From a virus (lineage: Duplodnaviria; Caudoviricetes): a stretch of 53,700 bases of DNA. How positions within the stretch are numbered: the stretch's first letter is position 1; each line of letters starts with the position of its first letter. Made by a program: the position numbers and the translations under genes. Below, one piece after another: positions 8,275 through 51,467 of the stretch. The notes beneath the pieces are model-generated. The model was not told the DNA's origin. It searched no databases and was given only the letters and a program-made list of their open reading frames with translations. The stretch covers positions 1 through 53,700 of the IMG/VR virus record IMGVR_UViG_3300037504_000611. The stretch is one strand, 5' to 3'.

Positions 8275-10926
8275 ATGCGTGTCTACCTCCCGCCATTGGC
8301 AGATATCAATCACGGAGTGGGGCAGGTTCTGGCGGCTCAGCATAGGCACCTCCCCGCGTCTGGAGTAGAGATAGCGGTCAGTCCTGACGATGCCGATATA
8401 GTGGCAGCGCACATCATCCCCGATACGGACCGCGTGCCCGATGTGTTGCATTTGCACGGCCTGCACTACGATAGCGCGGCTCCCGACGATCGCGACGTGA
8501 ACCGCCGTATTGTGCCGCATATCAGAAGTGCTCGTGTTGTGACTATGCCGTCTGAGTGGGCCGCGTTGCCCCTCCGGCGCGATATGCGTATAATTCCCCA
8601 GGTTATCCCTAACGGCATCGATGTGGATAGATGGCAACCAGGCGACGCACGACCGTACGCGCTGTGGAATAAAAACCGCATGGACGCAACCTGTAATCCC
8701 GCAATGGCTCTCGAACTGGCACGACGCGGCATTCCGGTGGTGAGCACCTATGCGCCCGCTGTACAGCGCCCCGACACCCTGACTGTGACGGGGAAAATGC
8801 CACACGAGCAGATGCGAACGTATATCCAGAACGCGGGCGTGTACCTCGCCACGACACGCGAGGTACACAGCATTGGAGTTCTGGAGGCGTTAGCGGCGGG
8901 CGTCCCGGTCCTTGGTTGGAATATGGGCGGCACGGCAGAGACGGTGCTGCACAAGGTGACGGGATGGTTGGCAGAGGAGGGCGACATTGAGAGCCTGATA
9001 GAGGGCTATCACTGGCTGATGCGCAACCGACACCTCATTTCTGGCGAGTGCCGCATCCTCGCACAATCGTATGATTGGGGGGCGATTATGCCGGAGTATG
9101 CGCGTGTGTATCACGATGCATTGACCGGCAAACAACAAGACACGAACAGGGTTGCAGTGGTCATTCCCTGCTATAACTATGCTCACTATCTTGCACAGGC
9201 GATAGAGAGCGTCTTGCCGCAATTAGAGGAGGGCGACACCTGCATAGTCGTTGATGATGGCAGCAGCGATAATACGAGCGATGTGGCCGAGCGATATCCT
9301 GTTGAGTTTATCCGGCAGCAAAATCAGGGCGTGAGCGCGGCCAGGAACGCGGGGGTTGCCGCTGTGTCACAACCATATATTATCTGTCTCGATGCCGACG
9401 ACCAACTGGTGCCGGGGGCTATCGACACATTGCGCGGAGCTATTCAGACTCGGCGCGACATCGGCATTGTCTATGGCTCGCTACGCACAATGGACGCACA
9501 GGGCAATGATACCACAGGCGGATGGGCGCGCCACTGGCCACCGCAATTTGATTGGCAGAACCACCTAGAGCACGGCAATCATATCCCGTGTGCGGCAATG
9601 TTCCGCCGGGAGATGTGGCGCCGCGCTGGCGGCTATCACGTTTTTGGCGGGTGCGAGGATTACGAATTCTGGTCACGCGGTCTGTCGATTGGTTTTACCG
9701 CCCTCAGAGTCACAGACCAGCCTACATTTTGTTACCGCCAGCACCCTGAGGGCAGGAGCAATCACCTGGAATGTCCTCCGTTGGCCAGCAGGCACCCGTG
9801 GGCTATAGACAGACACTACCCAATGGGCGCTCCTGCTGCACACGGGCCGATTGTGCGCTCCTATCGCAGGCCAGTTGTCAGTGTCATTGTGCCCGTAGGA
9901 CCTGGACATGAGCGCTATGTGAGCACGGCAATAGAGAGCCTGTTGTCGCAAACGTTCCGTGATTGGGAATGCGTTGTCGTTGACGATACACACGACGGCA
10001 TCCCACGCCTCAATCTGGAGGCATATCCGTTTGCGCAGCCTGTTCGTACGTCGTGCGGAGCGGGCGCAGGCGCGGCGCGCAATGCCGGACTGGATGTTGC
10101 CAGCGCTCCGTTGTGTCTGTTTCTGGACGCCGATGACTATCTATTGCCTGTCGCAATTGAACAAATGATCGATGCGTACCAGACAGCGGACAACGTGTCC
10201 TACATCTATACCGACTGGTTTGTATGGAGCGACGGCAAACCAGAGCGGCGCCATTGCGCGGCGTATCGCCAGAATGCATGGCTCACAAATGGATTACACA
10301 GTGTAACCGTCCTGATGGACACAGAGCACGCTCGTGCGGTTCGTTTCAACGAGGATATGCCCTCCTGGGAGGATTGGGATTTTTTCGCACGCGCTGCTAT
10401 AGCCGGGTATTGTGGGCAACGTCTGGCGCTGCCACTGTTAGGCTATCGGGCCGATACGGGCCAGCGCCGCCGCTACGCGATGCAAAACAGCACAGAATTG
10501 CGCAACGAGATAACCGCCCGCTATGGCCCGTATGCAAGAGGAGAAAAAACAATTATGGGATGCTGTGGAGGAAAAAAGACCTCTCCGCCGATGGTGGACA
10601 GCACACCGATACTCGGCGCTGCCGCCGCCACAGACGGCAACGTGCGTATGGAGTATCTGGGTCAGCAGTCCGGGGCAATAACCTATCGAGGCGCGCAGGG
10701 ACGCGCCTATCGGGGAGGCAACAACCCGCATCGGAAATACGCGAATGTTCACCCTGACGATGTGGAGCGTCTGGCCAACACCGGCAAATGGCGAGTCGTT
10801 GAGGCACCTGCTCCGATTGCGCGCACGGCAGAGATTGCACCGCCGCCGGAAACAGCCACACCAGAGGAGCCATCTGATGATGAGCAACAAACAGCGCCAA
10901 AGCGCAAGCGCCGCTCCCGCAGTTGA
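8275..10926 (+). CDS. Multidomain glycosyltransferase GT4-GT2-GT2 with a C-terminal extension
   Basis: GT4: VIPNGID, EVHSIGVLEALAAGVPV; first GT2: VVIPCYN, VVDDGSSD, CLDADD, CEDYEFW; second GT2: VIVPVGPGH, FLDADD, WEDWDF. Confidence 0.9.
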   Translation: MRVYLPPLADINHGVGQVLAAQHRHLPASGVEIAVSPDDADIVAAHIIPDTDRVPDVLHLHGLHYDSAAPDDRDVNRRIVPHIRSARVVTMPSEWAALPLRRDMRIIPQVIPNGIDVDRWQPGDARPYALWNKNRMDATCNPAMALELARRGIPVVSTYAPAVQRPDTLTVTGKMPHEQMRTYIQNAGVYLATTREVHSIGVLEALAAGVPVLGWNMGGTAETVLHKVTGWLAEEGDIESLIEGYHWLMRNRHLISGECRILAQSYDWGAIMPEYARVYHDALTGKQQDTNRVAVVIPCYNYAHYLAQAIESVLPQLEEGDTCIVVDDGSSDNTSDVAERYPVEFIRQQNQGVSAARNAGVAAVSQPYIICLDADDQLVPGAIDTLRGAIQTRRDIGIVYGSLRTMDAQGNDTTGGWARHWPPQFDWQNHLEHGNHIPCAAMFRREMWRRAGGYHVFGGCEDYEFWSRGLSIGFTALRVTDQPTFCYRQHPEGRSNHLECPPLASRHPWAIDRHYPMGAPAAHGPIVRSYRRPVVSVIVPVGPGHERYVSTAIESLLSQTFRDWECVVVDDTHDGIPRLNLEAYPFAQPVRTSCGAGAGAARNAGLDVASAPLCLFLDADDYLLPVAIEQMIDAYQTADNVSYIYTDWFVWSDGKPERRHCAAYRQNAWLTNGLHSVTVLMDTEHARAVRFNEDMPSWEDWDFFARAAIAGYCGQRLALPLLGYRADTGQRRRYAMQNSTELRNEITARYGPYARGEKTIMGCCGGKKTSPPMVDSTPILGAAAATDGNVRMEYLGQQSGAITYRGAQGRAYRGGNNPHRKYANVHPDDVERLANTGKWRVVEAPAPIARTAEIAPPPETATPEEPSDDEQQTAPKRKRRSRS
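10555..10926 (+). CDS. Putative nested in-frame gene (123 aa, MGCCGGKK...KRKRRSRS)
   Basis: GAGGAG at 10538-10543 and A-rich spacer before an in-frame ATG, right after the last GT2 domain. Confidence 0.5.
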   Translation: MGCCGGKKTSPPMVDSTPILGAAAATDGNVRMEYLGQQSGAITYRGAQGRAYRGGNNPHRKYANVHPDDVERLANTGKWRVVEAPAPIARTAEIAPPPETATPEEPSDDEQQTAPKRKRRSRS

Positions 10927-20800: not shown

Positions 20801-21390
20801 TGAACACGCATACCGCTACTGGTGTGTCGCTCATTGTCAACAATAAACGCGATGGCGGGCTAGGGCGCGGCACCGCATTCATTGATCGTAGGCCAGGAGA
20901 CAGCCGCGTCATTATTGGTACGGCACGCGCAAGTGCTTCTATTGGGTATTATGTCGTCAAGGACTACAATGTTGACGATCTCATCCTCTACGATGATGAG
21001 TTGAGCACTGGCAATTATTGGAACACATTCGCCAAAGACGGGCTGTACAAATCGGGGGAAAACCTGGACCAGGTGCGGTTTTACTCCTCTCCCCTCACTG
21101 TGCCTCCTTCCTCTCCCCTCGTGCCTATTGATTACCCCGCGTTTACCCTGGTCACGCCAGAGATAAGCGGCACCGTGGGCGCGATACGTGCCGCGCGCCA
21201 GTCCAGAGAGACAATCAAAACACTCGCATGCCGTCGCATATCGGCAAACGAGGCGCTCAATCGCGATTGCCTGGTATTCACCGAGGATGTGGGAGCCTGG
21301 CAAATCCTGACGGGCCCGCAGGTGAGTGACGGACTAGCTAACGGGGGGGACCTGGAAAATAATATCGAGTGCATTCTGAGGCTGACATGA
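17872..21390 (+). CDS. Tail hub/tip protein with PKD/Ig-like and beta-propeller regions
   Basis: About 1172 aa; DGSQSLS...LTYSW PKD-like motif; Asp-boxes ESTNRGNSW, YTNDTGSTW. Confidence 0.7.
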   Translation: MTWPDRDTYVYKLRCWIGGVQYALASFPARRIQLGQRTTCSLELTSSVPGANTPQPVRVDVGLLIGGSVTWYRFVTGYFVHDQTRGGPQAWRGIVIDCMWKLEQALQSDITWSSTPVETALLDLLQRAGLDDSEIGFLFAPGSVWNLGNFEDIVIEAGEQIRGIFDRVLEHAGLTFFVNAGGAVNVVPDVSIPSQDGSPVFASGVANGFELPADTIGFAAPERLWTDWQAVIIEYTATGPLRSDGFQPNATVATSILDDGVADGRQFPYFQTTAVCEARGRQVIRRSAARTRSITFQTNLQPLIYPWQSCKIISPEIDLDTETGIVIRSSANDGGLTTFIAALGPSLVATDTDIQPVEGEDAGEGGTGGLGDGGLDPVTGEIAGVEPIASITTTIDVEPLSGSGSIAYVFADGSQSLSNNGGTLTYSWTATPGSGSVSPSTSTEVSPLFKFDTLTGSTLALTVAESTDPTLTNTLTIELDGPDIEEFTRVVQYALADGTWGVEYSTQAGPAEYTSDIPGATFDCVGVPRYNEQGKLWALFSSGLNTALYRREPSDFSQFPEFIDATNSGEQGTTWLGVPSDIFVGEPFVNEQLLNLVLVGLRQPVTGGFAYVVLYSTNATADVPTFQRSAALPTITATASVNFGAVFVSAYDSNRFTVCVGRYLFESTNRGNSWTIGITNPDANAVAEDLAIAPWGTACVFSNVATDANRVRFTDASLSVDWSGVVTTGMEMQTITPLLAREGYKVGSNDGSVFLLLLSGSVFTATDIAQISSGNIFRGVRDGEIPLAFFASDGGVYKQANDDSTLEKIVNGDAVSVGYGGIGLPQLKPGIEVVIGDNDGNVWYYNQTAGWQKQVVTTSGVRIREVVANPFNPDEWIAVGQDGVHYTNDTGSTWTQLVTASGTRDFLSASFHDFVDGAWMASGQDGNIRTGTNNGPVTTVNNTLGWQNSRTIFCVSGTGTDWILAGVQSGLGIEFGLNTHTATGVSLIVNNKRDGGLGRGTAFIDRRPGDSRVIIGTARASASIGYYVVKDYNVDDLILYDDELSTGNYWNTFAKDGLYKSGENLDQVRFYSSPLTVPPSSPLVPIDYPAFTLVTPEISGTVGAIRAARQSRETIKTLACRRISANEALNRDCLVFTEDVGAWQILTGPQVSDGLANGGDLENNIECILRLT

Positions 21391-22742
21391 GCAACTCACG
21401 GTCCGATTATCTAATGGAGCGACTGCGGCAATTTACCACCGCGAACGATAATAACACACTCGTCCTGGCTGAGCAGCGCGCTGCAACCATTGCGAACACT
21501 ATCGGCATAAATTTAATAAACGAGGATAATATGGTCAATGGAGATGCGGCAGGGAGGCGGCAGGTCGTTGAACCAACAACGCTATACGATTTTCAGCATG
21601 AGTACGACCAGCAACCGGTCACTGAGGAAACACTGGCCACCGGATCGGGGAACACAGCAACGCACAACGCCAATGAGGCAGCGGTGGACATGACGACAGG
21701 GGGCACTGCTACAGGCCGCGTAGTCAGGCAATCCAGGCAATACATACGCTATCAGCCGGGCCGGGCACAACTCATTCTCTGCACCGGTGTGATGGGTGCG
21801 GCGACCGAAAATATCACCCAGCGCATTGGGTACTACGACGACAACAACGGGGTGTTTTTTGAGCAAACGGCAACCGATGTCGCAGTTGTCGTGCGCTCTA
21901 ATACATCTGGCAGCGTTGTGGACACGCGCGTTGCGCAGGCCAGTTGGAACCAGGATGTACTGGACGGCACCGGACCGTCTGGCGTAACACTAGACCTGAC
22001 GAAAAATCAGGTGTTCGTGATCGATTTTCTCTGGCTTGGCACCGCACAGGTACGCTATGGGTTCTACCTGGAGAGCAATACGGGCGATTTCGGCCTGAAA
22101 TGGGCGCACGAGGCGTATTATACCAATACGCAAACGGTGTCTTTTATGCGCACGGCAAATCTCCCCGTTCGTTACGAATTGGTGAATGACACAACGCCGG
22201 TGGCGTTCACGATGAAGGAAATTTGTTCGAGTGTTATCAGTTGGGGGGGCTTCGAGAGCGATCGTGCATTGCCGTTCGCTGCCAGCAATCAGGCGACGTC
22301 CGTTTCCTGCGGCACAGGCGCGCTTACTGGCACGCTGGCTATTCGAGCAGCGGACACGTTCAACAGTCTGGTTAATCGTGCCGGAATACGACCACGCGGC
22401 CTGAACCTGTTCACTGAATCGAGCGGCATCTACTGGCAATTGGTGTATAATCCCACAGTCACCGGAGGCGCATGGGTGAGCGCTGACGCAAACAGTGCTG
22501 TTGAGTACAATGCCACGCTCACCAGTTTTAGCGGCGGCATCGTTATCGAGATGGGGTATCTCCCGGTGGGGGGCGGTAACCAGGATATTGCACAGTTCGT
22601 CCAGGACATTGCAAGCCGCCTGCCCTACGGACTGGACGCGGCGGCAACAGCCGGGAGCGGTACAACGCTCCTCATTGCAGCGCAGGGATTGGGCGGCACG
22701 GCAGATGTGTATTCGGCCCTGATGTGGGACGAAATAAAATAG
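21387..22742 (+). CDS. Minor tail / receptor-binding-like protein
   Basis: 451 aa, beta-rich (RQSRQYIRYQPG, IGYYDDNNGVFF, WLGTAQVRYGF), last structural gene. Confidence 0.6.
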   Translation: MSNSRSDYLMERLRQFTTANDNNTLVLAEQRAATIANTIGINLINEDNMVNGDAAGRRQVVEPTTLYDFQHEYDQQPVTEETLATGSGNTATHNANEAAVDMTTGGTATGRVVRQSRQYIRYQPGRAQLILCTGVMGAATENITQRIGYYDDNNGVFFEQTATDVAVVVRSNTSGSVVDTRVAQASWNQDVLDGTGPSGVTLDLTKNQVFVIDFLWLGTAQVRYGFYLESNTGDFGLKWAHEAYYTNTQTVSFMRTANLPVRYELVNDTTPVAFTMKEICSSVISWGGFESDRALPFAASNQATSVSCGTGALTGTLAIRAADTFNSLVNRAGIRPRGLNLFTESSGIYWQLVYNPTVTGGAWVSADANSAVEYNATLTSFSGGIVIEMGYLPVGGGNQDIAQFVQDIASRLPYGLDAAATAGSGTTLLIAAQGLGGTADVYSALMWDEIK

Positions 22743-22755
22743 CGGGGGCGCATAG

Positions 22756-22944
22756 ATGCATATTCAGGACATTCGCGACCAGTTACCGCTCAATCACCGA
22801 TGGCACGGCGCAACCATCGGCACACGAGGTCAAACGTGGTTCATCACGCTGCACTACAACGGCCCGGAGGTTCCCGCAGCACGCCAGAGCAGAAGCCGGG
22901 TCAGGATTGTCATCGCTCGGCCCGGCTCATCAGCGCGGCTCTGA
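22756..22944 (+). pseudogene. Truncated N-acetylmuramoyl-L-alanine amidase (endolysin) N-terminus
   Basis: MHIQDIRDQLP...FITLHYNGP resembles the first Zn-ligand strand of Amidase_2; lysis position after the tail; no later catalytic motifs seen in any frame. Confidence 0.5.
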
Positions 22945-22949
22945 AAGAT

Positions 22950-23306
22950 TTATGTCCTGCCTCCACACACTGCCATCGTGTCATGTGTGTCGATATCTAT
23001 AACAACACGTTCGTCAACGGTGATAGAACAGGTGACCTCATCGGCAGTCTCACTCAGTGCTACCAGAGTTATTTCCGCACCTTCTACAACGTTGTCTAAT
23101 GTGATTGCCCACGGCAACCGAACAAGCCTGCCGTCCTCCATAAAATCTCTGCCCGGTATCTGGTATCCCACCACGGCGGTACCCTCCCCGCTAACGCGGT
23201 ACACAACTCGGTGAGCGGGCACCACCGTTCGTTTTGAAGTTTGGAGATACAATACCCCGCCGAGCAGAACGATAACCAAAATCAATCCATAGATAAGCTT
23301 TCGCAT
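22950..23306 (-). CDS. MmpS-like membrane-anchored protein
   Basis: N-terminal TM helix, VVYRVSG, VRLPW, VTCSITVDERVV...C pattern. Confidence 0.65.
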   Translation of the reverse strand: MRKLIYGLILVIVLLGGVLYLQTSKRTVVPAHRVVYRVSGEGTAVVGYQIPGRDFMEDGRLVRLPWAITLDNVVEGAEITLVALSETADEVTCSITVDERVVIDIDTHDTMAVCGGRT

Positions 23307-23318
23307 GTTTTATCCTTG

Positions 23319-23528
23319 CTACGCTTCCACTTCCTGTACTTGCTGCTCCAGAGTCGCCAGCACCAGCCGCCGCACGCACGCGGCGCGGCTCTCTCCAGGC
23401 TGGCGTTCGGCTTCGATGCGTTCAATCTCCTGTGCTGAAAATTTACTGCTCACCGTTCTCAGCCAGGGCTTACCTTTAGGCTTGGGGCCGCTCCCTGGAC
23501 GGCGGCCCCCGCGGGTGTGTCTGGTCAT
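23319..23528 (-). CDS. Small DNA-binding protein (GGRRPGSGPKP motif plus RHH-like region)
   Basis: Basic Gly/Arg/Pro motif followed by a strand-helix-helix pattern. Confidence 0.6.
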   Translation of the reverse strand: MTRHTRGGRRPGSGPKPKGKPWLRTVSSKFSAQEIERIEAERQPGESRAACVRRLVLATLEQQVQEVEA

Positions 23529-23537
23529 TTGCAATCG

Positions 23538-23744
23538 TCAATCCACCTGGTCATCGAAGCCGGGTTCTCCGCATTCCCATCCAAACACCAGGTTGTCCTC
23601 GTTGTCACTGTACAGTCCGCCGCTCTGGTCATACCACTGTACCAATTCCAGGTTGTTCTCAACCGCTACGTCGTGTGCTGTTTTGCCATCCGTCATCTGC
23701 GCGTTCAGTGCATCAATTCGTTTCTGCGTCATTACGTTTGCCAT
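23538..23744 (-). CDS. Small acidic hypothetical protein
   Basis: 68 aa, SD AAGGA, first gene after the promoter at 23787-23815. Confidence 0.65.
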   Translation of the reverse strand: MANVMTQKRIDALNAQMTDGKTAHDVAVENNLELVQWYDQSGGLYSDNEDNLVFGWECGEPGFDDQVD

Positions 23745-23786
23745 TGTGTGTGTCCTTTCAGTAATGTGTATCCTTAACATGAATAC

Positions 23787-23815
23787 AGTATACACTATTC
23801 AACGCTGTTTGTCAA
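23787..23815 (-). promoter_or_regulatory. Sigma70 promoter with a palindromic operator
   Basis: TTGACA-17-TATACT; imperfect palindrome gaatacagtatacactattc at 23781-23800 over the -10. Confidence 0.8.
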
Positions 23816-23847
23816 GGCTTCAGAAAGCCAAATAGGAAGAGTTTTGT

Positions 23848-24000
23848 TCAATCCAGCGTCTTTGCTCGGACGAACCCGCTAATCCGCGCCGCTGCCTCCT
23901 CGGTTCCGGCCCGGTGGCCGTGGCCGTAGCCGAGTCGATACGCGGCGACCAGGAGTGCGAGAAGCACCACCAGCGCTACAATGCCCAGACACTCAATCAT
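23848..24000 (-). CDS. Small single-TM protein
   Basis: MIECLGIVALVVLLALLVAAYRLG..., overlaps the ATPase stop. Confidence 0.55.
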   Translation of the reverse strand: MIECLGIVALVVLLALLVAAYRLGYGHGHRAGTEEAAARISGFVRAKTLD

Positions 24001-25462
24001 TGCGCACCGCCTCCCGAATGACGGCCTGTGCCTGCTGGCTGGCTTCGGTGTAGCGCCTGCCGTTCCTTGCGCCGCTGATCTCCCTGGCAATCTCTGCAAT
24101 ACTGGCCCCTCCAGCGAACATGTCAAGAACACGGCGCTCTGCTGCGGTATGCGCTTTTACCGAAGTGTTGCCAGCGTCTTGCCGTGGCATCGCTATGTCA
24201 ATGGTTTCCGCCTGCTGGTGCAGGTCGTCCGGCAACAGTCTGGCAATGCCTTCATTGCTGGCGAGTGGCACCCGTGCTAGTGTTGCGCGGGGCGTCGCTG
24301 CGCTGCGCAACAGCACCACGCCCTGGCCGAGTTGCTCTTCATAGGTAAACACGTCACGCTTGGGCATATCCAGCAATCGTACCACGCTATCCGCAGCGCC
24401 GCCGGAATAGTAGCACGAGCGCAGGTTATCCCGCACCTCGCCGGGTGTCTTGAGCACATCCGTGAGCAGGGATTGCGAACTGGTGACAACATACAAAAAG
24501 ACCTTCCGCCCCTCCTGTAGGAGCTTTGCCAGCGTGGCCATCGCCCCTGGCACATTGGCAATAATGGCGGGCAATTCGTCAACGTAGCACACCAGCGGAG
24601 CGCCCCATTTCTCGCCCGCTTCACGCAGGTCATAGCGTCGCCGCATCTCGCTATCCAGCCAGACAAACAGGTCTTGTATGTCGCCTGCCTTACGCGCTGG
24701 GGCCAGCTTCAACCGCCGCGCGATAGGTCGCCAGTCCTCACCCGACTCGGCGTCGAGTTCGGCGAAGTGCGGGTCGGCCAGCACGCACGGCACCTTGCAC
24801 GCTAACAGTTGGGCCAGCAGCAGCCTGCCCGTGTTGCTCTTGCCTCCGCCCGTGTTGCCGACGATGCCCGTGTGCATCAGTGCTGCTGCTGGCACCGTGA
24901 GCGGTTTCCCGTCCTCGCCCAGCCCCAACAGCAGCCGCCTGGGCGACGGCACAAAGTCCAGGTCGGCCAGGTCAATCAATCCAGGCAAACCGGACGCAGG
25001 CTGCTCATCTGGCACGCTCGCGGTATCGCCAGGTATGGCTTTGCTGCTGGTGTGCGGCGCATAGGCAATGTGCGGGGCGTAATGGTGCGCTGGCAAGGCG
25101 TGCTGATACTGGGCTTGTGCAATTAGTACACGCTCTTTGCTGGCAAGCTCCCGCATCGCATAGCGTCGCTCGAAGTTCAGCCCCCGTGCCCAGTTCCACC
25201 CGGCCAACGAGACGAACCCGAACACCGCCAGACTGAAGCCGACCAGGCCAATCACGGCCACCGAAGCCGCGCTTACGAGCACAGCGTCAAACACCGGCTG
25301 CTGGTGCTCCTGCCAGCGCCGCTCCTGCTGGCGTTCCAGCGCCAACATTGCGCGTGCGTGGCTGTTCTCTATCTGGCGGCGCTCTGCTGCCTCAGGGTCC
25401 AGTGTGACTGCCAGGAGCCACACCGCAACGAAGACAACAGACAACGGTATCAGTTTTTCCAT
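23993..25462 (-). CDS. Membrane FtsK/HerA-superfamily ATPase (TraB-like TM-ATPase-HTH architecture)
   Basis: Two N-terminal hydrophobic segments, Walker A GNTGGGKS, Walker B YVDELP, QEGRK...TSSQS, C-terminal HTH (GASIAEIAREI). Confidence 0.8.
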   Translation of the reverse strand: MEKLIPLSVVFVAVWLLAVTLDPEAAERRQIENSHARAMLALERQQERRWQEHQQPVFDAVLVSAASVAVIGLVGFSLAVFGFVSLAGWNWARGLNFERRYAMRELASKERVLIAQAQYQHALPAHHYAPHIAYAPHTSSKAIPGDTASVPDEQPASGLPGLIDLADLDFVPSPRRLLLGLGEDGKPLTVPAAALMHTGIVGNTGGGKSNTGRLLLAQLLACKVPCVLADPHFAELDAESGEDWRPIARRLKLAPARKAGDIQDLFVWLDSEMRRRYDLREAGEKWGAPLVCYVDELPAIIANVPGAMATLAKLLQEGRKVFLYVVTSSQSLLTDVLKTPGEVRDNLRSCYYSGGAADSVVRLLDMPKRDVFTYEEQLGQGVVLLRSAATPRATLARVPLASNEGIARLLPDDLHQQAETIDIAMPRQDAGNTSVKAHTAAERRVLDMFAGGASIAEIAREISGARNGRRYTEASQQAQAVIREAVRND

Positions 25463-25494
25463 AGTGTGACCCTTCCAATTGGATAACACGCGTT

Positions 25495-25791
25495 TTATAC
25501 GCTAATCCCCACGTCCCAAAAATCGTCACCGTCGTCGCTCACTGGCGCTGCTGGTGGTGCCTGCTGCCGGGGTTGCGCCAGTGCCGCCAATTCGCGGCGC
25601 AATGCGTCGGAGATCGTATCGCTCTCCAGAACCTTGTGTACTTCTCCGCGATGCTGCTGCACGTCACACCCCAGGCGATACAGCCCCAGGATGATGACCC
25701 CGCGCACGGCAAACGACGGATCGCCATGCGCCAGGATATCCTCACGCAGCGCTTCGGTTACACGAGCGAACAGCATGCCCCGTCGTGTCAT
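25495..25791 (-). CDS. Putative ParR-like adaptor
   Basis: 98 aa coupled to parM (ATGA), RHH-like N-terminus, acidic-hydrophobic tail DDFWDVGISV. Confidence 0.5.
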   Translation of the reverse strand: MTRRGMLFARVTEALREDILAHGDPSFAVRGVIILGLYRLGCDVQQHRGEVHKVLESDTISDALRRELAALAQPRQQAPPAAPVSDDGDDFWDVGISV

Positions 25792-26762
25792 TTGCCCGCC
25801 TTTGCTATGCGCTGCGCCAGATACGCATAGCCGCGAGCGACGGCCATTTGTGGCTCTGCTACCACATGCGCGTGCGGGAACTTGCGTTGTATCGCATCAG
25901 TCAATTGCGGCAATTCAGCCCCACCGCCGCCGATCAGGATGGTATCCAGGTGTGCCCCATTTTTCCAGCGTTCAACCAGACGGGAGGCAACGGTTTCGCC
26001 GTGCTGCGACAGAGGCGTGTCCCATCCATCCGGCAACGCCACCCGTTTCCCGCGTATCTTGAGGCATTTATTACGAATAACCTCATCGGTTTCCTGGAGC
26101 GTCAGGTTGCGCCCTGAGAAGTTGCTCAAACGGCTTCGCACCGCGCCCAACGGCTCTGACGTGCCGATGTCCCAGGTGTCCAGGCTGCCCGACACCGGAC
26201 GCTTACCCTTGACCTCACTCACGTCTATGGTGAGGTGCCCCATATCCACAACGCCCACGCGCCCGGACGCCAGCGCCTCATCACCTACCACTGCCCCCGT
26301 GCTATCGAGCAACGCAGAATAAAGGAGGCCAAGCGGCTCGGCAATCACCCGTATCTCTGTGAACGTGTCCGATCCTTCACGCAGGCGGGCACCGAGTGCC
26401 TGGGCCTTGCTCATATCCTCGGCCTGGTTCGCGGGTAGTCCGGTCACGCACACGCCCGGGTCAGCACCGTTCAAACTGGCGCGTTGCAATGCGCTGCGCA
26501 CCAGCACCGGAATAAACCGACCGTCATTGAGCCGCCCGACGGACAGGTCGGTCAGTGGGCTGCCTATCTCCACATCCTCGCCCGTCCAGAACTGTTGACC
26601 GCCGTGTTCCGTGACCACCGCGTTGTCGATTGCCCCTGCCAGTTCAGGCGCAGCAAAAGCAATCACCGATGGGAACACCAGCGAACACTGTTCCGAACCG
26701 TCCTCGTTGAGTACCACGTACTTAGTAAAGCCGTGCCCAACATTCAAGCCGTGTACCAACAT
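25788..26762 (-). CDS. parM: ParM/StbA-family actin-like partition ATPase
   Basis: GLNVGHGFTK, CVTGLP, AEPLG, VVDMGHLTID, IGGGGAE, MAVARGY; start at 26762 with SD AAGGAG. Confidence 0.85.
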   Translation of the reverse strand: MLVHGLNVGHGFTKYVVLNEDGSEQCSLVFPSVIAFAAPELAGAIDNAVVTEHGGQQFWTGEDVEIGSPLTDLSVGRLNDGRFIPVLVRSALQRASLNGADPGVCVTGLPANQAEDMSKAQALGARLREGSDTFTEIRVIAEPLGLLYSALLDSTGAVVGDEALASGRVGVVDMGHLTIDVSEVKGKRPVSGSLDTWDIGTSEPLGAVRSRLSNFSGRNLTLQETDEVIRNKCLKIRGKRVALPDGWDTPLSQHGETVASRLVERWKNGAHLDTILIGGGGAELPQLTDAIQRKFPHAHVVAEPQMAVARGYAYLAQRIAKAGK

Positions 26763-26799
26763 ACCCCCCCCACTCCTTTCTCGATAGAACGCTGCTCGT

Positions 26800-26843
26800 A
26801 TCATACCTGCTTGTCTATCAGTTGTCAATCAATCGATAGACAA
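26800..26843 (-). promoter_or_regulatory. parM promoter overlapped by an inverted repeat (parC/operator candidate)
   Basis: TTGACA (26828-26823)-17-TATGAT (26805-26800); TTGTCTATC 26811-26819 / GATAGACAA 26835-26843. Confidence 0.7.
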
Positions 26844-27001
26844 TTCCTTCAAAATTGCCCCGAAAACCCCTTGACAACCCTGCCCGGCGCGGCACCCCAA
26901 AAGCCGCGCGCTTTGACCCGGTGCCGTCAGGATTGACGGTCGAAGCCGTTGCCCGCGCCATTGATGCGGCATGGGAGCGATAGACAACTCCAAGCGATAA
27001 C

Positions 27002-27031
27002 GAAAGCCCCTGGCGTCGTGCCAGGGGCTTC
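27002..27031 (-). terminator. Intrinsic terminator
   Basis: 11-bp perfect stem AAGCCCCTGGC/GCCAGGGGCTT downstream of the leftward operon. Confidence 0.7.
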
Positions 27032-27074
27032 ATGTTGCCTGACAGTGGGTATATCACGCTGCCTGACAATCTGT

Positions 27075-27482
27075 TTACAACAAATGGCGAAAACTGCGCC
27101 CGTGGACAATATCGCCCATCGTCACTTTGCCCACTGCATATTCCCGCGCCATCTGCGCTTGCAAGCCGTGCCGTCCGCCTTCTGCTGCCCAGCGTTGACG
27201 TATTTCAAGCACCTGTTCATCGGTCAGCTTGCGCGGGGAACGCTTGCGCGGCGCGCCTGCGTCAAGCTCCTTTCTGCGTTGTCTCCAGTGCTGTTTCGGC
27301 GGCGCAGCCTGCCCTCCCGGCGGCGCAGCACGCTTTTCCAGCGGTGCAACGTCAGCACGCTCGGCGCGATAGCGTTCATAGAGGTGGTGGATTTCATCCT
27401 GGACACTCTGGAGATGCACGCCGCTCGCGTGGCCCTGTTGTAGCTCGCGGGTTTTCATTTTGATTTGCTCAAGTGTGGTCAT
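27075..27482 (-). CDS. Protein with a C-terminal HTH of the type found on HNH homing endonucleases
   Basis: KLTDEQVLEIR...MAREYAVGKVTMGDIVHGRSFRH; no HNH motif. Confidence 0.6.
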   Translation of the reverse strand: MTTLEQIKMKTRELQQGHASGVHLQSVQDEIHHLYERYRAERADVAPLEKRAAPPGGQAAPPKQHWRQRRKELDAGAPRKRSPRKLTDEQVLEIRQRWAAEGGRHGLQAQMAREYAVGKVTMGDIVHGRSFRHLL

Positions 27483-29269: not shown

Positions 29270-29641
29270 TTACATCTCCACATTCTTCAAAAATGCCCGT
29301 ATATCCGCCAGTGTGTCCATATCCAGACTGAATCCACCCTCCCAGCCAGTGACTACGCGCTGCAACAGGTCCAGCGCATAATTCAGGTTGTCGTTGCTGC
29401 TGTAATGGCCCTCCAGTGCCTTTTGCACATCCCCGCGCAGGTGCGGGTGGGCAGCGTCCCAGCCGGATATGTCCTGCACGCTGGCAAGCTCCGCCAGCAG
29501 GTCACGCAGCGCGGCCCGCTCCGCACGGGCCTTGTGCAGCGCATCGGTGAGCACTGCCATCGTGGCACGTTCTCGTTGTTCGATGGCTGTGTTGTATTCT
29601 CGCACAATCTGCTCTGACCGTTTGTCTATGTGTGGTTGCAT
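29270..29641 (-). CDS. Hypothetical protein
   Basis: 123 aa, SD AAGGAGG. Confidence 0.6.
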   Translation of the reverse strand: MQPHIDKRSEQIVREYNTAIEQRERATMAVLTDALHKARAERAALRDLLAELASVQDISGWDAAHPHLRGDVQKALEGHYSSNDNLNYALDLLQRVVTGWEGGFSLDMDTLADIRAFLKNVEM

Positions 29642-30417
29642 GTTTCCTCCTTATGTCTCTCTAATGCTGTCCTGACCGCTCCTGCTATTGCCTTGCCCAT
29701 CGGCAGCGGAACCCCGTTCCCGATGGCCTTGAGCTTGCCCGCCACGGTGAACGGGGCACCGTCTAAGAAATCCCCCGGCAAGCCTTGCAAGCGGCAATTC
29801 TCTTGCAGAGTTCTGCCATTGCGTGCGTTCGGAGGCAACTCCGAACGCACCTTGTCTTTGACAACCTTCTTGGGTTTCCCGTTGCCATTCAGGCGAATGG
29901 GCGTGCCGTTCCAGTTGCCGCCGCCAGATGCCACAACCGCATAGGCCCACTCGCCAGGCACCGCGCCCCACAGGTCGAGATGGGGGAGCAGGCTTATGGC
30001 CTTTTCGCCGCGCACGCCAAATACGAAACGGCGCTCGCGGTTTTGTTCACCGCCGCACTGGCGATTGTTGATGACCACAACCGACTGTGCATAGCCCGGT
30101 GTGACTGGACATGGCGCAGCGGGCACATTCTCCATCAAAAACGCACGCGGTTGCGCTTCGAGGACAACCCGCGCAAACTCCGGTATCAGATCGGGCGCAA
30201 GTTCATAGCCGTTGTGGCGCACCATATGCGCCAATCGGCTAAAACGCTGGCACGGTGGCCCGCCGATAACCAGGTCAAACTTGCCTGCTGGCGGGCGGAA
30301 CGTGTGAATGTCACCGCCCCACAGGCTGTCCGGCCCGCGCACGACACAAAAGCCGTGCGCTTCAAAGGCCATATCAATCAAACCAATGCCAGGAAACAAC
30401 GACAATACCAGCATCAC
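29626..30417 (-). CDS. DNA cytosine-5 methyltransferase
   Basis: LFPGIG, GGPPCQ, MENV, QNRERRF, RLQG, IGNGVP motifs. Confidence 0.92.
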   Translation of the reverse strand: MMLVLSLFPGIGLIDMAFEAHGFCVVRGPDSLWGGDIHTFRPPAGKFDLVIGGPPCQRFSRLAHMVRHNGYELAPDLIPEFARVVLEAQPRAFLMENVPAAPCPVTPGYAQSVVVINNRQCGGEQNRERRFVFGVRGEKAISLLPHLDLWGAVPGEWAYAVVASGGGNWNGTPIRLNGNGKPKKVVKDKVRSELPPNARNGRTLQENCRLQGLPGDFLDGAPFTVAGKLKAIGNGVPLPMGKAIAGAVRTALERHKEETCNHT

Positions 30418-31265
30418 GCCACCCCCTCTCGTTCTAGCAGATCAAACAGCGTGCGCTCCTGCTGCGTGCTCCGATTGCACACCCATACCACCTCCACGCG
30501 TTGGTTTGCGGTGCGTGTTTTACTGTTCTCCGCGCTCATCACGGCCTGTATTTCTATCCGTCGTTGTGCCGACGCTGGTTCTGTCGTCTGCGGGTAGTTG
30601 TTCAGGATGTAGCTCCCCTGGCACGTATCCAGCGCGCTACACAGCGCGTGCCAGTCTTCCAGTGTATAGCCACTGTAATGGCCCTGGTTTGCGCCAGGGT
30701 AGGGCGGGTCGCAGTAGAACAGCGTGTCTGGACTATCCCAACGCTGGATACACCTGATGGCATCCTCGCACGACACATAGACACCGCTGAAACGCTCCAG
30801 GATGGTGGGAAGCCATTGCAGATACGTTGCCCATGCCTGTGCGCTGTTCCGTGTCTTTACGTTTGTTCCCCACCCCTTCCCTATGCCGTTTGCAAACGAC
30901 TGGCGGGTTTGCACGACCACCGCCCAGGCGACGCGCAACGGCGTGTAGTCGTGCGGCGCTTGCAAGACGGCGTACGCCTTGCGATACTCCGACTGACTGT
31001 ATGGCGTGTATTGCAGCAGGTGTAGCAGGTCGTCCTTCTGCTCCTGGCACACGCGATAGAGCGTCACAATGCGCTCGTCCCTATCGTTGACGCATTCCCG
31101 ATAATCATCACGATTATCGGGGCGAGGCTTGCCCTTGGCGAACAGCACCGCCGCGTCGCCTGCGAACGGCTCTACATAGACAGTGTGCGGAATGGTACGG
31201 ATAATGTCCACAATGCGCGATGCAATGCGCTGCTTGCCGCCGTAGTAGCTGATGATTGGTTTCAC
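30414..31265 (-). CDS. DNA adenine methyltransferase (D12/Dam class)
   Basis: YYGGK, VYVEPFAGDAA, FYCDPPY. Confidence 0.9.
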   Translation of the reverse strand: MKPIISYYGGKQRIASRIVDIIRTIPHTVYVEPFAGDAAVLFAKGKPRPDNRDDYRECVNDRDERIVTLYRVCQEQKDDLLHLLQYTPYSQSEYRKAYAVLQAPHDYTPLRVAWAVVVQTRQSFANGIGKGWGTNVKTRNSAQAWATYLQWLPTILERFSGVYVSCEDAIRCIQRWDSPDTLFYCDPPYPGANQGHYSGYTLEDWHALCSALDTCQGSYILNNYPQTTEPASAQRRIEIQAVMSAENSKTRTANQRVEVVWVCNRSTQQERTLFDLLEREGVA

Positions 31266-31354
31266 GCCTCCTTCTCTCCGAACATCGCGTCAACGGTAAA
31301 GCCGGACGGCGTGTGTATGGCGCGTTTGGCGGCAAGAAAATCGGTGTAGTTCAT
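31262..31354 (-). pseudogene. 30-aa stub resembling the N-terminus of phage SNF2-type helicases
   Basis: MNYTDFLAAKRAIHTPSGF; coupled to both neighbours, SD GAGG. Confidence 0.35.
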
Positions 31355-32631
31355 CGTGTATCCTCTAGTGAGAGCAGGAGCGGCTGCTCGATGCCCTCGG
31401 CCAATATCTGGGGCAGCAACTCGGCCCCGTTCGGCTCGGTGCCGTCCCATTTGCCAGGCCAGGTATTGAGGGCGTGCAGTTGCACAATGCGCCCATACTC
31501 GCGCCCGTTGATAAGCTCCATTGCTGGCATATTGTTCTGGTGTGCCCCCTGAAAGACCTCGCGCTGAATTTGCAAAATCTCGGCCAGTCCCCACTGCCGG
31601 GCCTCCATCGTGAGCGGCCCTTTGCGCCCCGGGTTTTTAGAGAGCGTGCCGTCCTTCTTGCGCTCGGTGCCGTCTTTTTGCAGCCGGTTGCCGTGCTTGC
31701 GCAGTTCGAGGCTGATCGGGCGCAGGCGTTTCAGGGGAGCCAGGTGCCCCCAGCGCTCCGGGTATTCGCTCAATAGGTGGTCAAGGGCTACGTCTGTCGT
31801 CGCTAGTTCGCAGCCCGTGCAGCCGGTGCGGGCGTTGAGTTCTTTCTGGTCTCCCTCTTCACTCACGCCGTATACATCTGCAATCATCTGCGTATCGAAG
31901 CCGTGTGACGGCGCAAAGAACATCAGCCAGTCCCAGACGTGGCACAGCCGCCAGTGCAGCAACGGAGCCAGGGTGTCAGCCAGGGCTGTAGGCGTAGTCT
32001 CCTGATACCATCCCTGCCCACATTCGCCACCGTCTTTGCCGCAGGCCAGGGCAATGCGCTGGTCACGCGCTGCACTTTCGCCCATCCGCAACCCGGTCAG
32101 CATCAGGATTTTCTCATTGCCATACCCCTGGTAACGCCAGCGTTTGTGGCGCTTATCCCAAACCATCTGCCCCAGGCCCAGCACGGCACCGTGCTGGGCA
32201 AGTGCGTTATTCATTGGTTCGATTTTGATTTGCCGAGTACACCAGCGGAAGGTCATATTGTTGGGCGGTGGCACGCCTCGGCCTAACATATAGACATAGA
32301 AACGCTCATCAAGCGGCGGCAATACCACCTGTGCGTTGACCTCGCGCTGCCTCATCGTGCGCAGCAGGTGCAAGGCACTGGCTTGCAGCGGCGGCAACTC
32401 GCGCCGGGTATCGGCATAGAGCACAGTCAGTGTCTCAGGACGCGGCACCTGCCCTGACTCAATGAGCCAGAGCACCAACGTTGTTGTGGCGGTGCTGTCC
32501 TTGCCCCCACTGAACGCTATGGCCCAATGTCGATAGTTTGCAGCATAGGCGTACAGGCTATCAATGGTCATCTGGATGGCATCGTTCATCGTCATGCGTT
32601 GCTCTTCCCAGAGCGAAAGTTGTCGTTTCAT
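31351..32631 (-). CDS. PAPS-reductase family protein (DndC-like)
   Basis: AFSGGKDS, YADT, RWCTRQIKIEP, GLRMGESAARD, APLLHW...VWDWL, RTGCTGC. Confidence 0.85.
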   Translation of the reverse strand: MKRQLSLWEEQRMTMNDAIQMTIDSLYAYAANYRHWAIAFSGGKDSTATTTLVLWLIESGQVPRPETLTVLYADTRRELPPLQASALHLLRTMRQREVNAQVVLPPLDERFYVYMLGRGVPPPNNMTFRWCTRQIKIEPMNNALAQHGAVLGLGQMVWDKRHKRWRYQGYGNEKILMLTGLRMGESAARDQRIALACGKDGGECGQGWYQETTPTALADTLAPLLHWRLCHVWDWLMFFAPSHGFDTQMIADVYGVSEEGDQKELNARTGCTGCELATTDVALDHLLSEYPERWGHLAPLKRLRPISLELRKHGNRLQKDGTERKKDGTLSKNPGRKGPLTMEARQWGLAEILQIQREVFQGAHQNNMPAMELINGREYGRIVQLHALNTWPGKWDGTEPNGAELLPQILAEGIEQPLLLSLEDTR

Positions 32632-42938: not shown

Positions 42939-43754
42939 TTATGGTACAGGCTCCAGGAGAGTGAGCCGCTCGCAGCGCGCCTTTCCGTCGGTACCGAACG
43001 GCACAACCACTCCTGGTAGGTCGCGCCAATTGATGATGCATCGCCAGATTGTGGCGTGTGGATATTCTGCCACACACCACTCCATTGTGGCGAAATTGAC
43101 CCCGCTCCCGCAGTCAGTGGCGCGGTCTGGGTTGCAAACCTCCGTCAGAGCCGCCCCGGGGGCGATTTCCCAATGTGCGGGGGGCGAGTACTCCGTGCCC
43201 CCGAGCGCCTTATAGACGACGTACCCGTCGTCCGTTGCCTCAAAATTTCCCGCAATCCACTCGGATTGCGATTTGACTCCCACGGCCCCTTGCAGGTCTG
43301 CCCTGCTGAGGTTCGCCCCGCGCAGGTCTGCTATGTGCAGGTTCGCCCCTCGCAGGTCGGCCCCTCGCAGTTCGGCTCCGCTGAGGTCGGCCCCTCGCAG
43401 GTCTGCCCTGCTGAGGTTCGCCCCTTGCAGGTTCGCCTCTCGCAGTTCGGCCCCGCTGAGGTCGGCCCAGCTGAGGTCGGCCCAGCTGAGGTCGGCCCCG
43501 CTGAGGTTGGCCCCTATCAGGTCGGCCCCTCGCAGGTCGGGCCCGCTGAGGTTGGCCCCTTGCAGATTGGCCCAGCTGAGGTCGGCCCCTCGCAGGTCTG
43601 CCCTGCTGAGGTTCGCCTCTCGCAGGTCGGTCCCTCGCAGCTCGGCCCTGCTGAGGTCTGCCCCGCTGAGGTCTGCCCTGCTGAGGTCGGCCCTGCTGAG
43701 GTCGGCCCAGCCGAGGTTCGCCCCGCTCACAATATCGTGTCCGTTCACCTTCAT
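42939..43754 (-). CDS. Pentapeptide-repeat protein
   Basis: About 29 A(D/N/E)Lxx repeats (15-bp units, about 43280-43730) plus a C-terminal domain DCGSGVNFAT...DGKARC. Confidence 0.92.
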   Translation of the reverse strand: MKVNGHDIVSGANLGWADLSRADLSRADLSGADLSRAELRGTDLREANLSRADLRGADLSWANLQGANLSGPDLRGADLIGANLSGADLSWADLSWADLSGAELREANLQGANLSRADLRGADLSGAELRGADLRGANLHIADLRGANLSRADLQGAVGVKSQSEWIAGNFEATDDGYVVYKALGGTEYSPPAHWEIAPGAALTEVCNPDRATDCGSGVNFATMEWCVAEYPHATIWRCIINWRDLPGVVVPFGTDGKARCERLTLLEPVP

Positions 43755-50243: not shown

Positions 50244-51467
50244 ATGAACGAACCAACAGAGCACACACGCGGTATTGACACGCTTGTACCGCACCCGCGC
50301 AACTATAATCAGCACCCGCCTGCGCAGATTGAGCGGCTCGCCGCCAGTTTGCAGCAGTTCGGACAGGTGCGGCCTATTGTGGTGCATAAGAATACCATAA
50401 TCGCAGGCCACGGCGTATACCTGGCTGCACAGCACCTCAACTACCAGGCGTTGCGTGTCACCCAACTACCAGACGACTGGACAGACGAGCAGGCGATGGC
50501 TTATCTGGTGGCCGACAACGAGACGAGGCGCGGCGCAGAACCCGACGATGCCGAACTGGCGGCGCTGCTTGATGAGTTGCGTCCGTCGTTTGACCTGGGT
50601 AGCCTGGGTTTTGATGAGGCCGAATATAGCGCGCTGTTGGATGGGTTGACGCCAGACCTGCCCGAACCAGGCGGCGGCGGTGATGAGTTTGAACCCGATG
50701 AGGCCGCGCCCTGCCGGGTGCAGACGGGTGACGTGTGGCTGATTGGCGGCGTGCATCGCCTGATCTGTGGAGACTGCACCGACCCGGCAACGGTGGATCG
50801 GTTGATGCAGGGCGAGCGGGCCGACATGGTGTTTACCGACCCGCCCTATAATCTAGCAGATAGTGACAAGTTGCTAGCCGCCAGTGCCATATCTGATAGT
50901 TATGGTGTCTTAAAGGATAGTGCATGGGATAAGGCGTTTGATCCAGAGCCAGCACTAAGGCAATTGTTGCGCATATTGGCCCCTGATTGTGTTGTGTATA
51001 TTTGTACGTCTCAATTCTTGGCAGGTGCTATATGGGGTTGGATGGCGCAATGGGCAGACTTTTATAATTATGTGGTTTGGTGCAAGCCCAATCCAATGCC
51101 ATCATTGACGGGGCGACATTGGACATGGGGGACAGAGTTGATTTGTTATGCAACACGAGGGAAGCATGCCTTTAATGGTGTCCAGGGTTCTCACTTGTTG
51201 AACTGGTGGCAGATCAATCGTGCATCTCATGTTTCAGAACATCCAACCGAAAAGCCTGTCCAAGTACCCTGTCATGCTATAGAACACAGTAGCAACAAAA
51301 GCAATCTTGTCCTTGACCCCTTCCTCGGCTCCGGCACAACCATCATCGCCGCCCACCGTACCGGGCGCCGCTGCTACGGCTGCGAGATATCGCCGGAGTA
51401 TTGCGAGGTCATACTGCAACGCTGCGAGGCCGAGGGGTTGACGGTGGAACGAGTAGAACAGGGCTAG
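50244..51467 (+). CDS. ParB-like N-terminal domain plus N6/N4 DNA methyltransferase
   Basis: PRNYNQH, IIAGHG, ADN; HRLICGD, FTDPPY, HPTEKP, DPFLGSGTT. Confidence 0.9.
   Translation: MNEPTEHTRGIDTLVPHPRNYNQHPPAQIERLAASLQQFGQVRPIVVHKNTIIAGHGVYLAAQHLNYQALRVTQLPDDWTDEQAMAYLVADNETRRGAEPDDAELAALLDELRPSFDLGSLGFDEAEYSALLDGLTPDLPEPGGGGDEFEPDEAAPCRVQTGDVWLIGGVHRLICGDCTDPATVDRLMQGERADMVFTDPPYNLADSDKLLAASAISDSYGVLKDSAWDKAFDPEPALRQLLRILAPDCVVYICTSQFLAGAIWGWMAQWADFYNYVVWCKPNPMPSLTGRHWTWGTELICYATRGKHAFNGVQGSHLLNWWQINRASHVSEHPTEKPVQVPCHAIEHSSNKSNLVLDPFLGSGTTIIAAHRTGRRCYGCEISPEYCEVILQRCEAEGLTVERVEQG

Follow-up and report, generated by a model that had tools for sequence, protein, structure and literature searches.

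Phage operons that combine an actin-like gene with a translocase-type ATPase have been known since 2012. The accessible text of Pathria et al. (2012; PMC3357382) describes a "DNA translocation operon" in phage 0305phi8-36 (orf200-207), which comprises relaxase-like, coupling ATPase, VirB6-like and MreB-like genes, and a counterpart in SPO1 (gp27.3-27.9, including gp27.3, gp27.4 and gp27.9). The same text relates gp27.4 and orf201 to TraG-type coupling proteins and reports the authors' speculation on a movement of phage genomes between cells. The SPO1 genes run from gp27.9 (actin-like) through gp27.8 and three small genes to the gp27.4 ATPase. The operon considered here lies at positions 23848-26843 of a tailed phage genome of 53,700 nucleotides (IMG/VR record IMGVR_UViG_3300037504_000611), the whole of which was analysed and is called the window. 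It encodes a ParM-like protein, a ParR-like adaptor of 98 residues, a membrane-anchored ATPase of the FtsK type and a membrane protein of 50 residues. This operon is not unprecedented, but it is compact and open to experiment.

Two further systems bear on the comparison. In the available text of PMC4446434, the CGP3 adaptor AlpA binds upstream of its own operon, phage DNA is driven to the membrane by AlpC filaments, and CGP3 replication drops to half when either AlpA or AlpC is missing; phi29 p16.7 and MreB are also mentioned there. In Streptomyces, TraB and the Spd proteins form a complex, according to the accessible part of PMC4447253. A passage on FtsK in the available part of bioRxiv 10.64898/2026.09.15.751708 concerns inovirus pI and has no bearing on the operon. 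Phage-encoded FtsK-like ATPases are common, and no tested function for them was found. Literature searches that did not extend to supplementary files turned up no description of this operon, and its DNA matched none of 50,697 phage records.

The interpretation that we favor, tentatively and at somewhat less than an even chance, is that the operon joins two modules for the handling of DNA, both acting on the phage's own double-stranded DNA (dsDNA), with the motor placed at the membrane or septum.

The operon and its two modules

All four open reading frames (ORFs) lie on the minus strand, where an earlier note on this DNA had placed them. The parM-like gene encodes an actin-family ATPase of 324 aa (25788-26762) and starts with an ATG behind a GGAG-type ribosome-binding site; an alternative reading of 346 aa from a TTG would run into the promoter. 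The ATG of the ParR-like adaptor gene (25495-25791) overlaps the parM stop by 4 nt. The gene for the FtsK-branch ATPase, a transmembrane (TM) protein of 489 aa with a C-terminal helix-turn-helix (HTH), follows at 23993-25462 with GGAAGG 8 nt before its ATG, and the gene for the 50-aa single-pass TM protein (23848-24000) overlaps the ATPase stop by 8 nt and is translationally coupled to it.

A sigma-70-like promoter precedes parM on the minus strand (TTGACA-17-TATGAT, 26828-26800) and agrees with the consensus at 11 of 12 positions. The -35, the -10 and the leader are kept in a second phage (L036), while the sequence further upstream diverges; the earlier note had placed a single promoter before ParM. 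A second site of this type (TTGACA-17-TATACT, 23815-23787, minus strand) lies directly after the 50-aa gene and marks the downstream boundary of the operon. A sigma-70-like scan of 22700-27300 found no internal promoter-like site within the operon; the two sites that it did find, both on the minus strand, are not beyond the number expected by chance (mean of 1.7 in shuffled sequences). Upstream, an 11-bp perfect hairpin with a T-rich tail (27004-27030, minus strand), detected by an inverted-repeat search and unlisted by the terminator scan, ends the preceding gene and insulates the operon. The four genes are regarded as one transcription unit.

The ParM-like protein matches phrog_691 ("partition protein") over residues 23-343 (9.5e-32) and PF21522 (2.4e-10; 41.5 bits with a cut-off of 27.8). 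Its homologues number 71 at E<=1e-5, and many of these carry PF17989 (ALP_N) or PF21522; the protein also aligns with SPO1 gp27.9 over 301 columns at an hhalign probability of 98.6% and matches the ParM/StbA genes of 161 plasmid records. Its scores with the NCBIfam ParM and PRTRC-D models are far under the cut-offs (50.7 versus 417 bits and 48.4 versus 214.8 bits, respectively). The residues invariant in 17 sequences (N7-G9-G11-K14, D173-G175-T178 and G279-G280-G281) make up glycine-rich motifs that we take to be the phosphate and adenosine loops.

The adaptor has no Pfam, PHROG or NCBIfam family match, and its AlphaFold2 monomer model consists of an extended N-terminus followed by four helices. 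In 7 of 11 other viral ParM loci, and in one genomic locus (L068), the gene immediately after parM encodes a relative of the adaptor. The eight adaptor sequences that were aligned all share a conserved C-terminal peptide (residues 90-98), which is acidic at first and then hydrophobic. The adaptor is predicted to dock on ParM through this peptide: in the complex model, residues 90-98 lie on ParM residues 114-125, 136-144 and 315-322, with a score of 0.65 compared with 0.07 for the best control. Among solved complexes, 58 of 80 attain that mark, as do 2 of 110 mismatched pairs. The modeling runs share at least 61% of contacts, and the predicted local distance difference test (pLDDT) of the partner is at least 69.

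Inverted repeats around the parM promoter form a candidate operator or centromere (26811-26989, no strand assigned). The inverted repeat TTGTCTATC / GATAGACAA straddles the -35 (26811-26843), a third copy (GATAGACAA) lies at 26979, and the related words GTTGTCAA and TTGACAAC lie at 26821 and 26871. Three of the four copies of the 9-mers TTGTCTATC / GATAGACAA in the 53.7-kb genome are at the operon promoter. Repeats are few, the candidate centromere consisting of three 9-mer copies and two related 8-mers in 180 bp. The TTGTC and TTGACAA cores are kept in L036. We infer that the adaptor binds these repeats.

By predicted fold, the ATPase sits on the FtsK/TcpA/EssC branch, a placement obtained by ranking its matches by fold and by sequence profile. 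The AlphaFold model (13 sequences; mean pLDDT 75) is confident at residues 160-410 and 440-488. In Foldseek searches of the PDB, the FtsK motor is the best match (4.3e-11; 2ius, 6t8b), followed by TcpA of pCW3 (4e-10 to 9e-10; 6o1w/6o1x), EccC/EssC (about 6e-9 to 3e-8) and HerA (1e-6 to 1e-5). When the family profile is compared with solved structures, FtsK again comes first (3.5e-6), ahead of EccC5 (1.9e-4) and TrwB (0.26). The earlier note had called for this grouping to be checked; both rankings put FtsK first, with TcpA next by fold and HerA and TrwB weaker. PF01580 (FtsK_SpoIIIE) matches at 26.3 bits with a cut-off of 24, PF01935 matches at 31.9 bits over the P-loop only (residues 201-241), and the NCBIfam EccCb model gives 2.9e-3. 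The FtsK alpha and gamma domains (PF17854 and PF09397) have no Pfam match in the protein. Invariant in the 13 sequences are a Walker A motif (G-x-T-G-x-G-K), the Walker B residues D295-E296, an R-E-G-R-K motif, R319 and Q330.

Outside the motor, two hydrophobic segments (residues 4-21 and 58-89) enclose a charged helix and are followed by a low-confidence linker. The C-terminal domain (440-488) is modeled as a three-helix HTH with no wing or strand (pLDDT about 90) and is kept across the ATPase family; its Pfam typing is sub-threshold (HTH_20 0.071, GerE 0.14 and, in L002, HTH_38 0.0023). The 50-aa protein has a TM segment at residues 1-26 and matches phrog_26748 (5.5e-4). A homologue with 43% identity directly follows the ATPase in the closest phage relative (L002); the ORF in the same position in L003 shows no clear relationship to it.

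The ATPase belongs to a large unnamed family, with 2998 representatives at E<=1e-3, a number that falls to 1056 at 1e-10 and to 394 at 1e-30. The Atlas clusters closest to it consist mostly of viral "FtsK/SpoIIIE" proteins, 470-570 aa in length, and a ranking by structure puts Chloroflexota FtsK clusters first (TM 0.56); both serve as leads only. Several mostly viral FtsK-like clusters of 55-91 members are also present in the Atlas. A metagenome scan with the ATPase profile gave one true relative among the eight loci of the matches listed. A tblastn search of phages returned 25 records, 23 of them Bacillus phages annotated FtsK/SpoIIIE, but all are below 60% identity and none reaches 80% query coverage, so they are too distant to inform. 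The same search of 72,556 plasmid records (E<=0.01) returned two, from Pseudanabaena and S. aureus; the Pseudanabaena protein (4e-8), the closest relative found on a plasmid, is annotated as a type IV secretion system (T4SS) DNA-transfer family protein.

Gene order in other elements and the phage itself

The order ParM, ParR, (multi-TM protein), TM-ATPase, (TM protein) recurs in five other elements (L036, L040, L045, L046 and L068), in which ParM is 39-89% identical to that of the window and the ATPases are about 25-28% identical. The first four are among the 11 viral ParM loci. In each of them a TM-anchored P-loop ATPase is encoded on the same strand, 0-4 genes past the adaptor, and aligns with the family profile at an hhalign probability of 96-98%. 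Multi-pass membrane proteins are encoded between or after these genes, and HTH-like C-termini are visible in three of the four ATPases. The fifth element, L068, comes from a genome of the class to which an Oscillochloris metagenome-assembled genome (MAG) belongs, and its order is like that of the window. It begins with a ParM of 40% identity, continues with an adaptor that has the same tail and a 3-TM protein, and ends with a TM-ATPase (hhalign 99.4%) followed by a TM protein.

Counting the window, an actin pair followed by a membrane FtsK-type ATPase is thus found in six elements, and each module is also found alone. The four viral ATPases resemble one another (1e-7 to 1e-17, or 2e-6 for one pair) more closely than they do that of the window (1e-3 to 3e-4), and the slot in the window is filled by a different, normally ParM-free subfamily. 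The ATPase-family profile (A2) missed the L045 and L046 ATPases that hhalign detected. Because this profile is insensitive to the cousin subfamily, its blanks in ParM-bearing records (5 of 5 in one set and 1 of 5 in another) were not counted.

Some ParM clusters carry additional membrane proteins. TM-anchored Peptidase_M23 genes occur in L036 (8907-10175; 6.8e-20) and L044 (9278-10075; 1.5e-24), and the one in L036 lies between the adaptor and the TM-ATPase. In L045, the membrane protein encoded directly after the ParM-linked ATPase (8558-9151) has a two-helix CyanoTRADDas_TM domain (PF20712, 1.4e-17).

The window is a whole virus with direct terminal repeats and a completeness rating of 100%. 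Virion genes occupy the plus strand from about 1 to 22.7 kb (for example 21369-22742, phrog_1645, 1.3e-88), and the large terminase gene lies at 51916-53265. Replication and nucleotide genes lie on the minus strand (22.9 to 43.8 kb), among them those for a primase/helicase, a helicase, methyltransferases, a PAPS-reductase-like protein and a dCTP deaminase. The ParM-ATPase block is located where the early and late arms converge, and it shares its strand and side with the replication genes. Six-frame searches of the genome gave no match to a tyrosine or serine recombinase. The phage is a complete tailed phage without an integrase, in agreement with the tailed phage of the earlier note.

The named relatives of both the ATPase and ParM are listed only as "Chloroflexota bacterium". 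Two true ATPase relatives were found among the 20 genome-contig loci returned, both on contigs of the Oscillochloris MAG, and the ATPase profile matched (E<=1e-10) in 6 of 151 genomes sampled from its class. The host lineage is likely Chloroflexota, which includes filamentous forms, and the filamentous host envisaged earlier is consistent with this assignment. The Oscillochloris MAG itself (G017) has three ATPase-profile matches, on contigs C394, C47 and C439 (2.5e-165, 4e-124 and 7.6e-11), and one ParM match on a contig apart from these, a pattern suggestive of several phages or prophages of this kind in a single host bin.

The earlier note had also described a broken lysin next to the operon. 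That description is not borne out: no Pfam family matches the 62-aa ORF (22756-22944) at E<=1, and Amidase_2 gives no match in any frame at E<=0.1. A six-frame search of the genome with Amidase_2, Amidase_3, Phage_lysozyme, GH25, Peptidase_M23 and Peptidase_M15_4 gave no match. A tblastx comparison of window positions 22701-23900 with L002 found no similarity, and by itself neither supports nor refutes a truncated lysin.

Other features of the genome are incidental to the operon. Behind the second promoter (23815-23787) lies a minus-strand trio of small genes (22950-23815), which includes genes for a 118-aa membrane protein with a weak match barely over the cut-off to PF05423 (Mycobact_memb, 1.4e-4) and for a 71-aa basic protein without a family match. 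Three DNA methyltransferase genes and a PAPS-reductase-like gene (phrog_12882, 4.7e-143), located at 29626-32631 and 50244-51467, suggest heavy DNA modification. The only strong k-mer repeat in the genome is a 15-nt coding period in the minus-strand gene 42939-43754, where it spans 43294-43708; the encoded protein matches repeat families, among them phrog_31265 (1.4e-46). One 10-mer, allowing at most one mismatch, has 24 matches against 4.0 expected, 20 of them in that segment, and the product looks like a five-residue repeat protein.

Functional interpretation and its alternatives

In the favored reading, the first module would be a type II system (ParMRC/AlpAC-like), in which the adaptor binds the inverted repeats around its own promoter and, through its C-terminal peptide, couples phage DNA to growing ParM filaments. 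Growth of the filaments would drive copies of the genome away from each other, or towards the membrane and poles. The second module would be a hexameric-type motor of the FtsK branch, held at the membrane by its N-terminal helices together with the 50-aa TM partner, and its C-terminal HTH would read DNA. At division septa, this membrane motor could reel in or clear phage DNA, such that the cells of a filament keep a copy. The two modules would then cooperate in a plasmid-like carrier state of the phage.

Several observations weigh against this reading, and some of these concern the activities assigned to the parts. Foldseek returned no significant match by which a DNA-binding fold of the adaptor, such as the ribbon-helix-helix of ParR, could be recognized, the best PDB match of its monomer having an E-value of 0.79. 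Peptide complexes of ParM and ParR have been solved, and the docking score may profit from likeness to them. Genome-wide, no strand-biased or over-represented 8- to 10-mer of a kind that might guide a motor was found outside the coding repeat. Plasmid partition is not assured, because virulent SPO1-like phages and provirus-classed records have ParM homologues as well. Deletion of the 0305phi8-36 operon gave no growth defect in the laboratory, as reported in the accessible text of PMC3357382.

Other such points concern the association of the modules. The promoter-parM-adaptor segment (26853-25495) shares 78% nucleotide identity with a 75-kb viral contig (L034), and since this identity stops exactly at the adaptor stop, the segment is an independently mobile cassette. 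The linkage of ATPase and parM in other elements that the earlier note anticipated holds for the wider family, in which a TM-ATPase-HTH protein follows ParM-ParR in five elements, but it fails for the closest relatives. ParM and adaptor profiles matched in none of the 11 loci with close ATPase relatives (seven viral, L002-L008; one metagenomic, L048; three genomic, L014, L058 and L069), three of which have short flanks. Similarly, phrog_691 is found in none of five whole viral records with ATPase relatives (three of them at least 99% complete), four of which have the window's terminase in common. Seven of the 11 viral ParM loci have no such ATPase within 7 kb. In relatives from more distant phages, the ATPase directly follows a tyrosine integrase (L007, 263-1198) or Xis-like HTH genes (L004, 5068-5331; L005, 3235-3450), and Prim-Pol or D5-type primases are encoded downstream of it in L005 and L003. 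Because it adjoins integrase, Xis-like or primase genes in these elements, the ATPase works without ParM.

This separability is the starting point for the first alternative, which we consider unlikely: the two modules are unrelated neighbors, with ParM and ParR forming an ordinary partition cassette of the plasmid-prophage kind and the ATPase and its TM partner an independent accessory, for example for superinfection exclusion or defence against incoming DNA at the membrane. Their adjacency would arise because accessory genes collect at this genome junction, and the position of the block, where the early and late arms converge, fits such an origin. The int/xis neighborhood of the ATPase in relatives is likewise the usual site of prophage-expressed exclusion genes. 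A defence role finds an echo in PADLOC matches to mad8 (2.3e-6) and to HerA models (2e-3 to 7e-3), but these are weak and no better than generic P-loop matches, and no nuclease, Sir2 or other effector partner was found among the eight proteins scanned. Chance adjacency is also difficult to reconcile with translational coupling, and with the order ParM, ParR, TM-ATPase in five other elements at ParM identities down to about 39% and ATPase identities of about 25-28%.

A second alternative, which is more doubtful, is spread of the TraB/Spd type, in which a motor pore at septa or cell contacts pumps phage dsDNA into neighboring cells without virions and ParM delivers the DNA. The domain logic is that of TraB (TM region, FtsK-type motor, C-terminal DNA-binding domain), and, in the available text of PMC4447253, TraB and Spd proteins do form such a complex. 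The genes around the relatives are suggestive as well. Small or multi-pass membrane proteins flank the ATPase, TM-anchored M23 peptidoglycan hydrolases occur in the L036 and L044 ParM clusters, and int/xis/rep genes adjoin, an arrangement like that of actinomycete integrative elements. Filamentous forms occur in the likely host lineage, and none of the six lysin families tested was detected. As the earlier note had observed, no relaxase or T4SS gene was detected, and the lack of a relaxase is expected of dsDNA transfer: PF13814 and PF03432 have no six-frame matches, and none was seen among 38 ORFs in a scan that was not exhaustive.

A specific tie to Streptomyces TraB, which the earlier note had drawn, finds no support, however. 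The two tblastn matches among 72,556 plasmid records are neither from Streptomyces nor annotated as TraB, and the HTH is wingless and has only sub-threshold matches to GerE, HTH_20 and HTH_38. The clt locus consists of repeated 8-bp TraB recognition sites, and a whole-genome k-mer scan found no clt-like repeated 8-mer. Virions remain the obvious route of spread, because the genome keeps a full virion module with its terminase and the relatives share the terminase in four of five records. A fully specified version, in which ParM delivers phage dsDNA by way of the promoter repeats to a septal TM-FtsK-HTH pore for virion-free passage from cell to cell along a Chloroflexota filament, is a shade less probable again. 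If it were true, a virus would also be spreading like a Streptomyces plasmid. Cell-to-cell spread is speculation, and the idea is not new, having been voiced in 2012 for an analogous phage operon (PMC3357382, accessible text).

The third alternative, about as doubtful as TraB-type spread, is an organizer of replication in the lytic cycle. Here, in the manner of AlpAC of CGP3 and of the phi29 membrane anchor p16.7, ParM would move replicating genomes to the membrane, where the TM-ATPase-HTH protein would tether or spool them into a replication or packaging site, with no partition or spread. The CGP3 precedent, in which AlpC filaments push DNA to the membrane and replication falls by half upon loss of AlpA or AlpC (PMC4446434, available text), favors this view. 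So do the occurrence of ParM homologues in virulent SPO1-like phages as well as in provirus-classed records and the location of the operon on the strand and side of the replication genes. On the other hand, a full FtsK-type motor with invariant catalytic motifs exceeds the needs of a tether, and the overlap of a host-type consensus promoter with an operator is reminiscent of an autoregulated maintenance operon. The absence of an integrase is a further point against it.

Protein export by a minimal type VII-like (EssC/EccC-type) or lysis-associated membrane ATPase with small membrane proteins would accommodate the EccC/EssC fold matches (about 6e-9 to 3e-8), the EccC5 profile match (1.9e-4), the NCBIfam EccCb match (2.9e-3) and the membrane proteins and M23 hydrolases near the relatives, but it is very improbable given a single ATPase domain, no FHA or DUF domains, no WXG100-like gene seen, a conserved C-terminal HTH that points to DNA, and the ranking of FtsK over EssC/EccC.

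Returning to the composite of partition and motor modules, the operon is compact enough (four genes behind a conserved promoter, together with a candidate DNA site and a predicted contact between adaptor and filament) for an actin system and a membrane motor to be tested together. Should the modules cooperate, the operon would reveal the way in which the cells of a multicellular filament share out a phage genome or even hand it on to each other, a question that has stood since at least 2012. Should they not, it would be an ordinary partition cassette beside one more unexplained accessory ATPase.

Comparison with known systems

The operon of Pathria et al. is similar in being a phage operon with an actin-like gene, small genes and a membrane-associated translocase-type ATPase, and gp27.9 is homologous to the ParM of the window. 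The ATPases differ: that of the window aligns with gp27.4 at an hhalign probability of 2.4%, with no homology beyond the P-loop, and it is of the FtsK branch rather than TraG-type. The window also lacks a MobC-type relaxase (PF13814, six frames), no VirB6-like gene was seen in it, and its probable host is a member of the Chloroflexota rather than Bacillus.

Among ATPases, HerA is a poor counterpart, as PF01935 covers the P-loop only, HerA chains rank below FtsK, TcpA and EssC, and no nuclease or Sir2 partner was found. TcpA of the Clostridium perfringens plasmid pCW3 is the second-best fold match and similar in size, but the window has no detected VirB4-, VirB6- or relaxase-type partners, and its ATPase ends in an HTH. 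With TraB it shares a single TM-anchored FtsK-like motor, a C-terminal DNA-binding domain, adjoining small membrane proteins and the lack of a relaxase; it differs in its type of HTH, in having no Streptomyces plasmid match and in belonging to a phage with a complete virion module.

FtsK/SpoIIIE gives the best fold and profile matches and is built alike, from an N-terminal membrane anchor through a linker and a RecA-type motor to a C-terminal DNA-binding domain. FtsK has four TM helices, whereas the ATPase of the window has two hydrophobic segments, a motor of about 250 residues, a wingless three-helix HTH and no KOPS-like skewed motif.

The first two genes resemble ParMRC of R1 and AlpAC-alpS of CGP3, with an actin-like NTPase, a small co-transcribed adaptor, candidate adaptor-binding repeats at their own promoter, and an adaptor that is predicted to bind the filament protein via a terminal peptide. 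The R1 parC site is composed of ten iterons, compared with only three to five short repeats in the window, and the adaptor of the window has no detectable family or fold match. The pair in the window further differs from both of these systems in that it is joined in one operon to a membrane motor.

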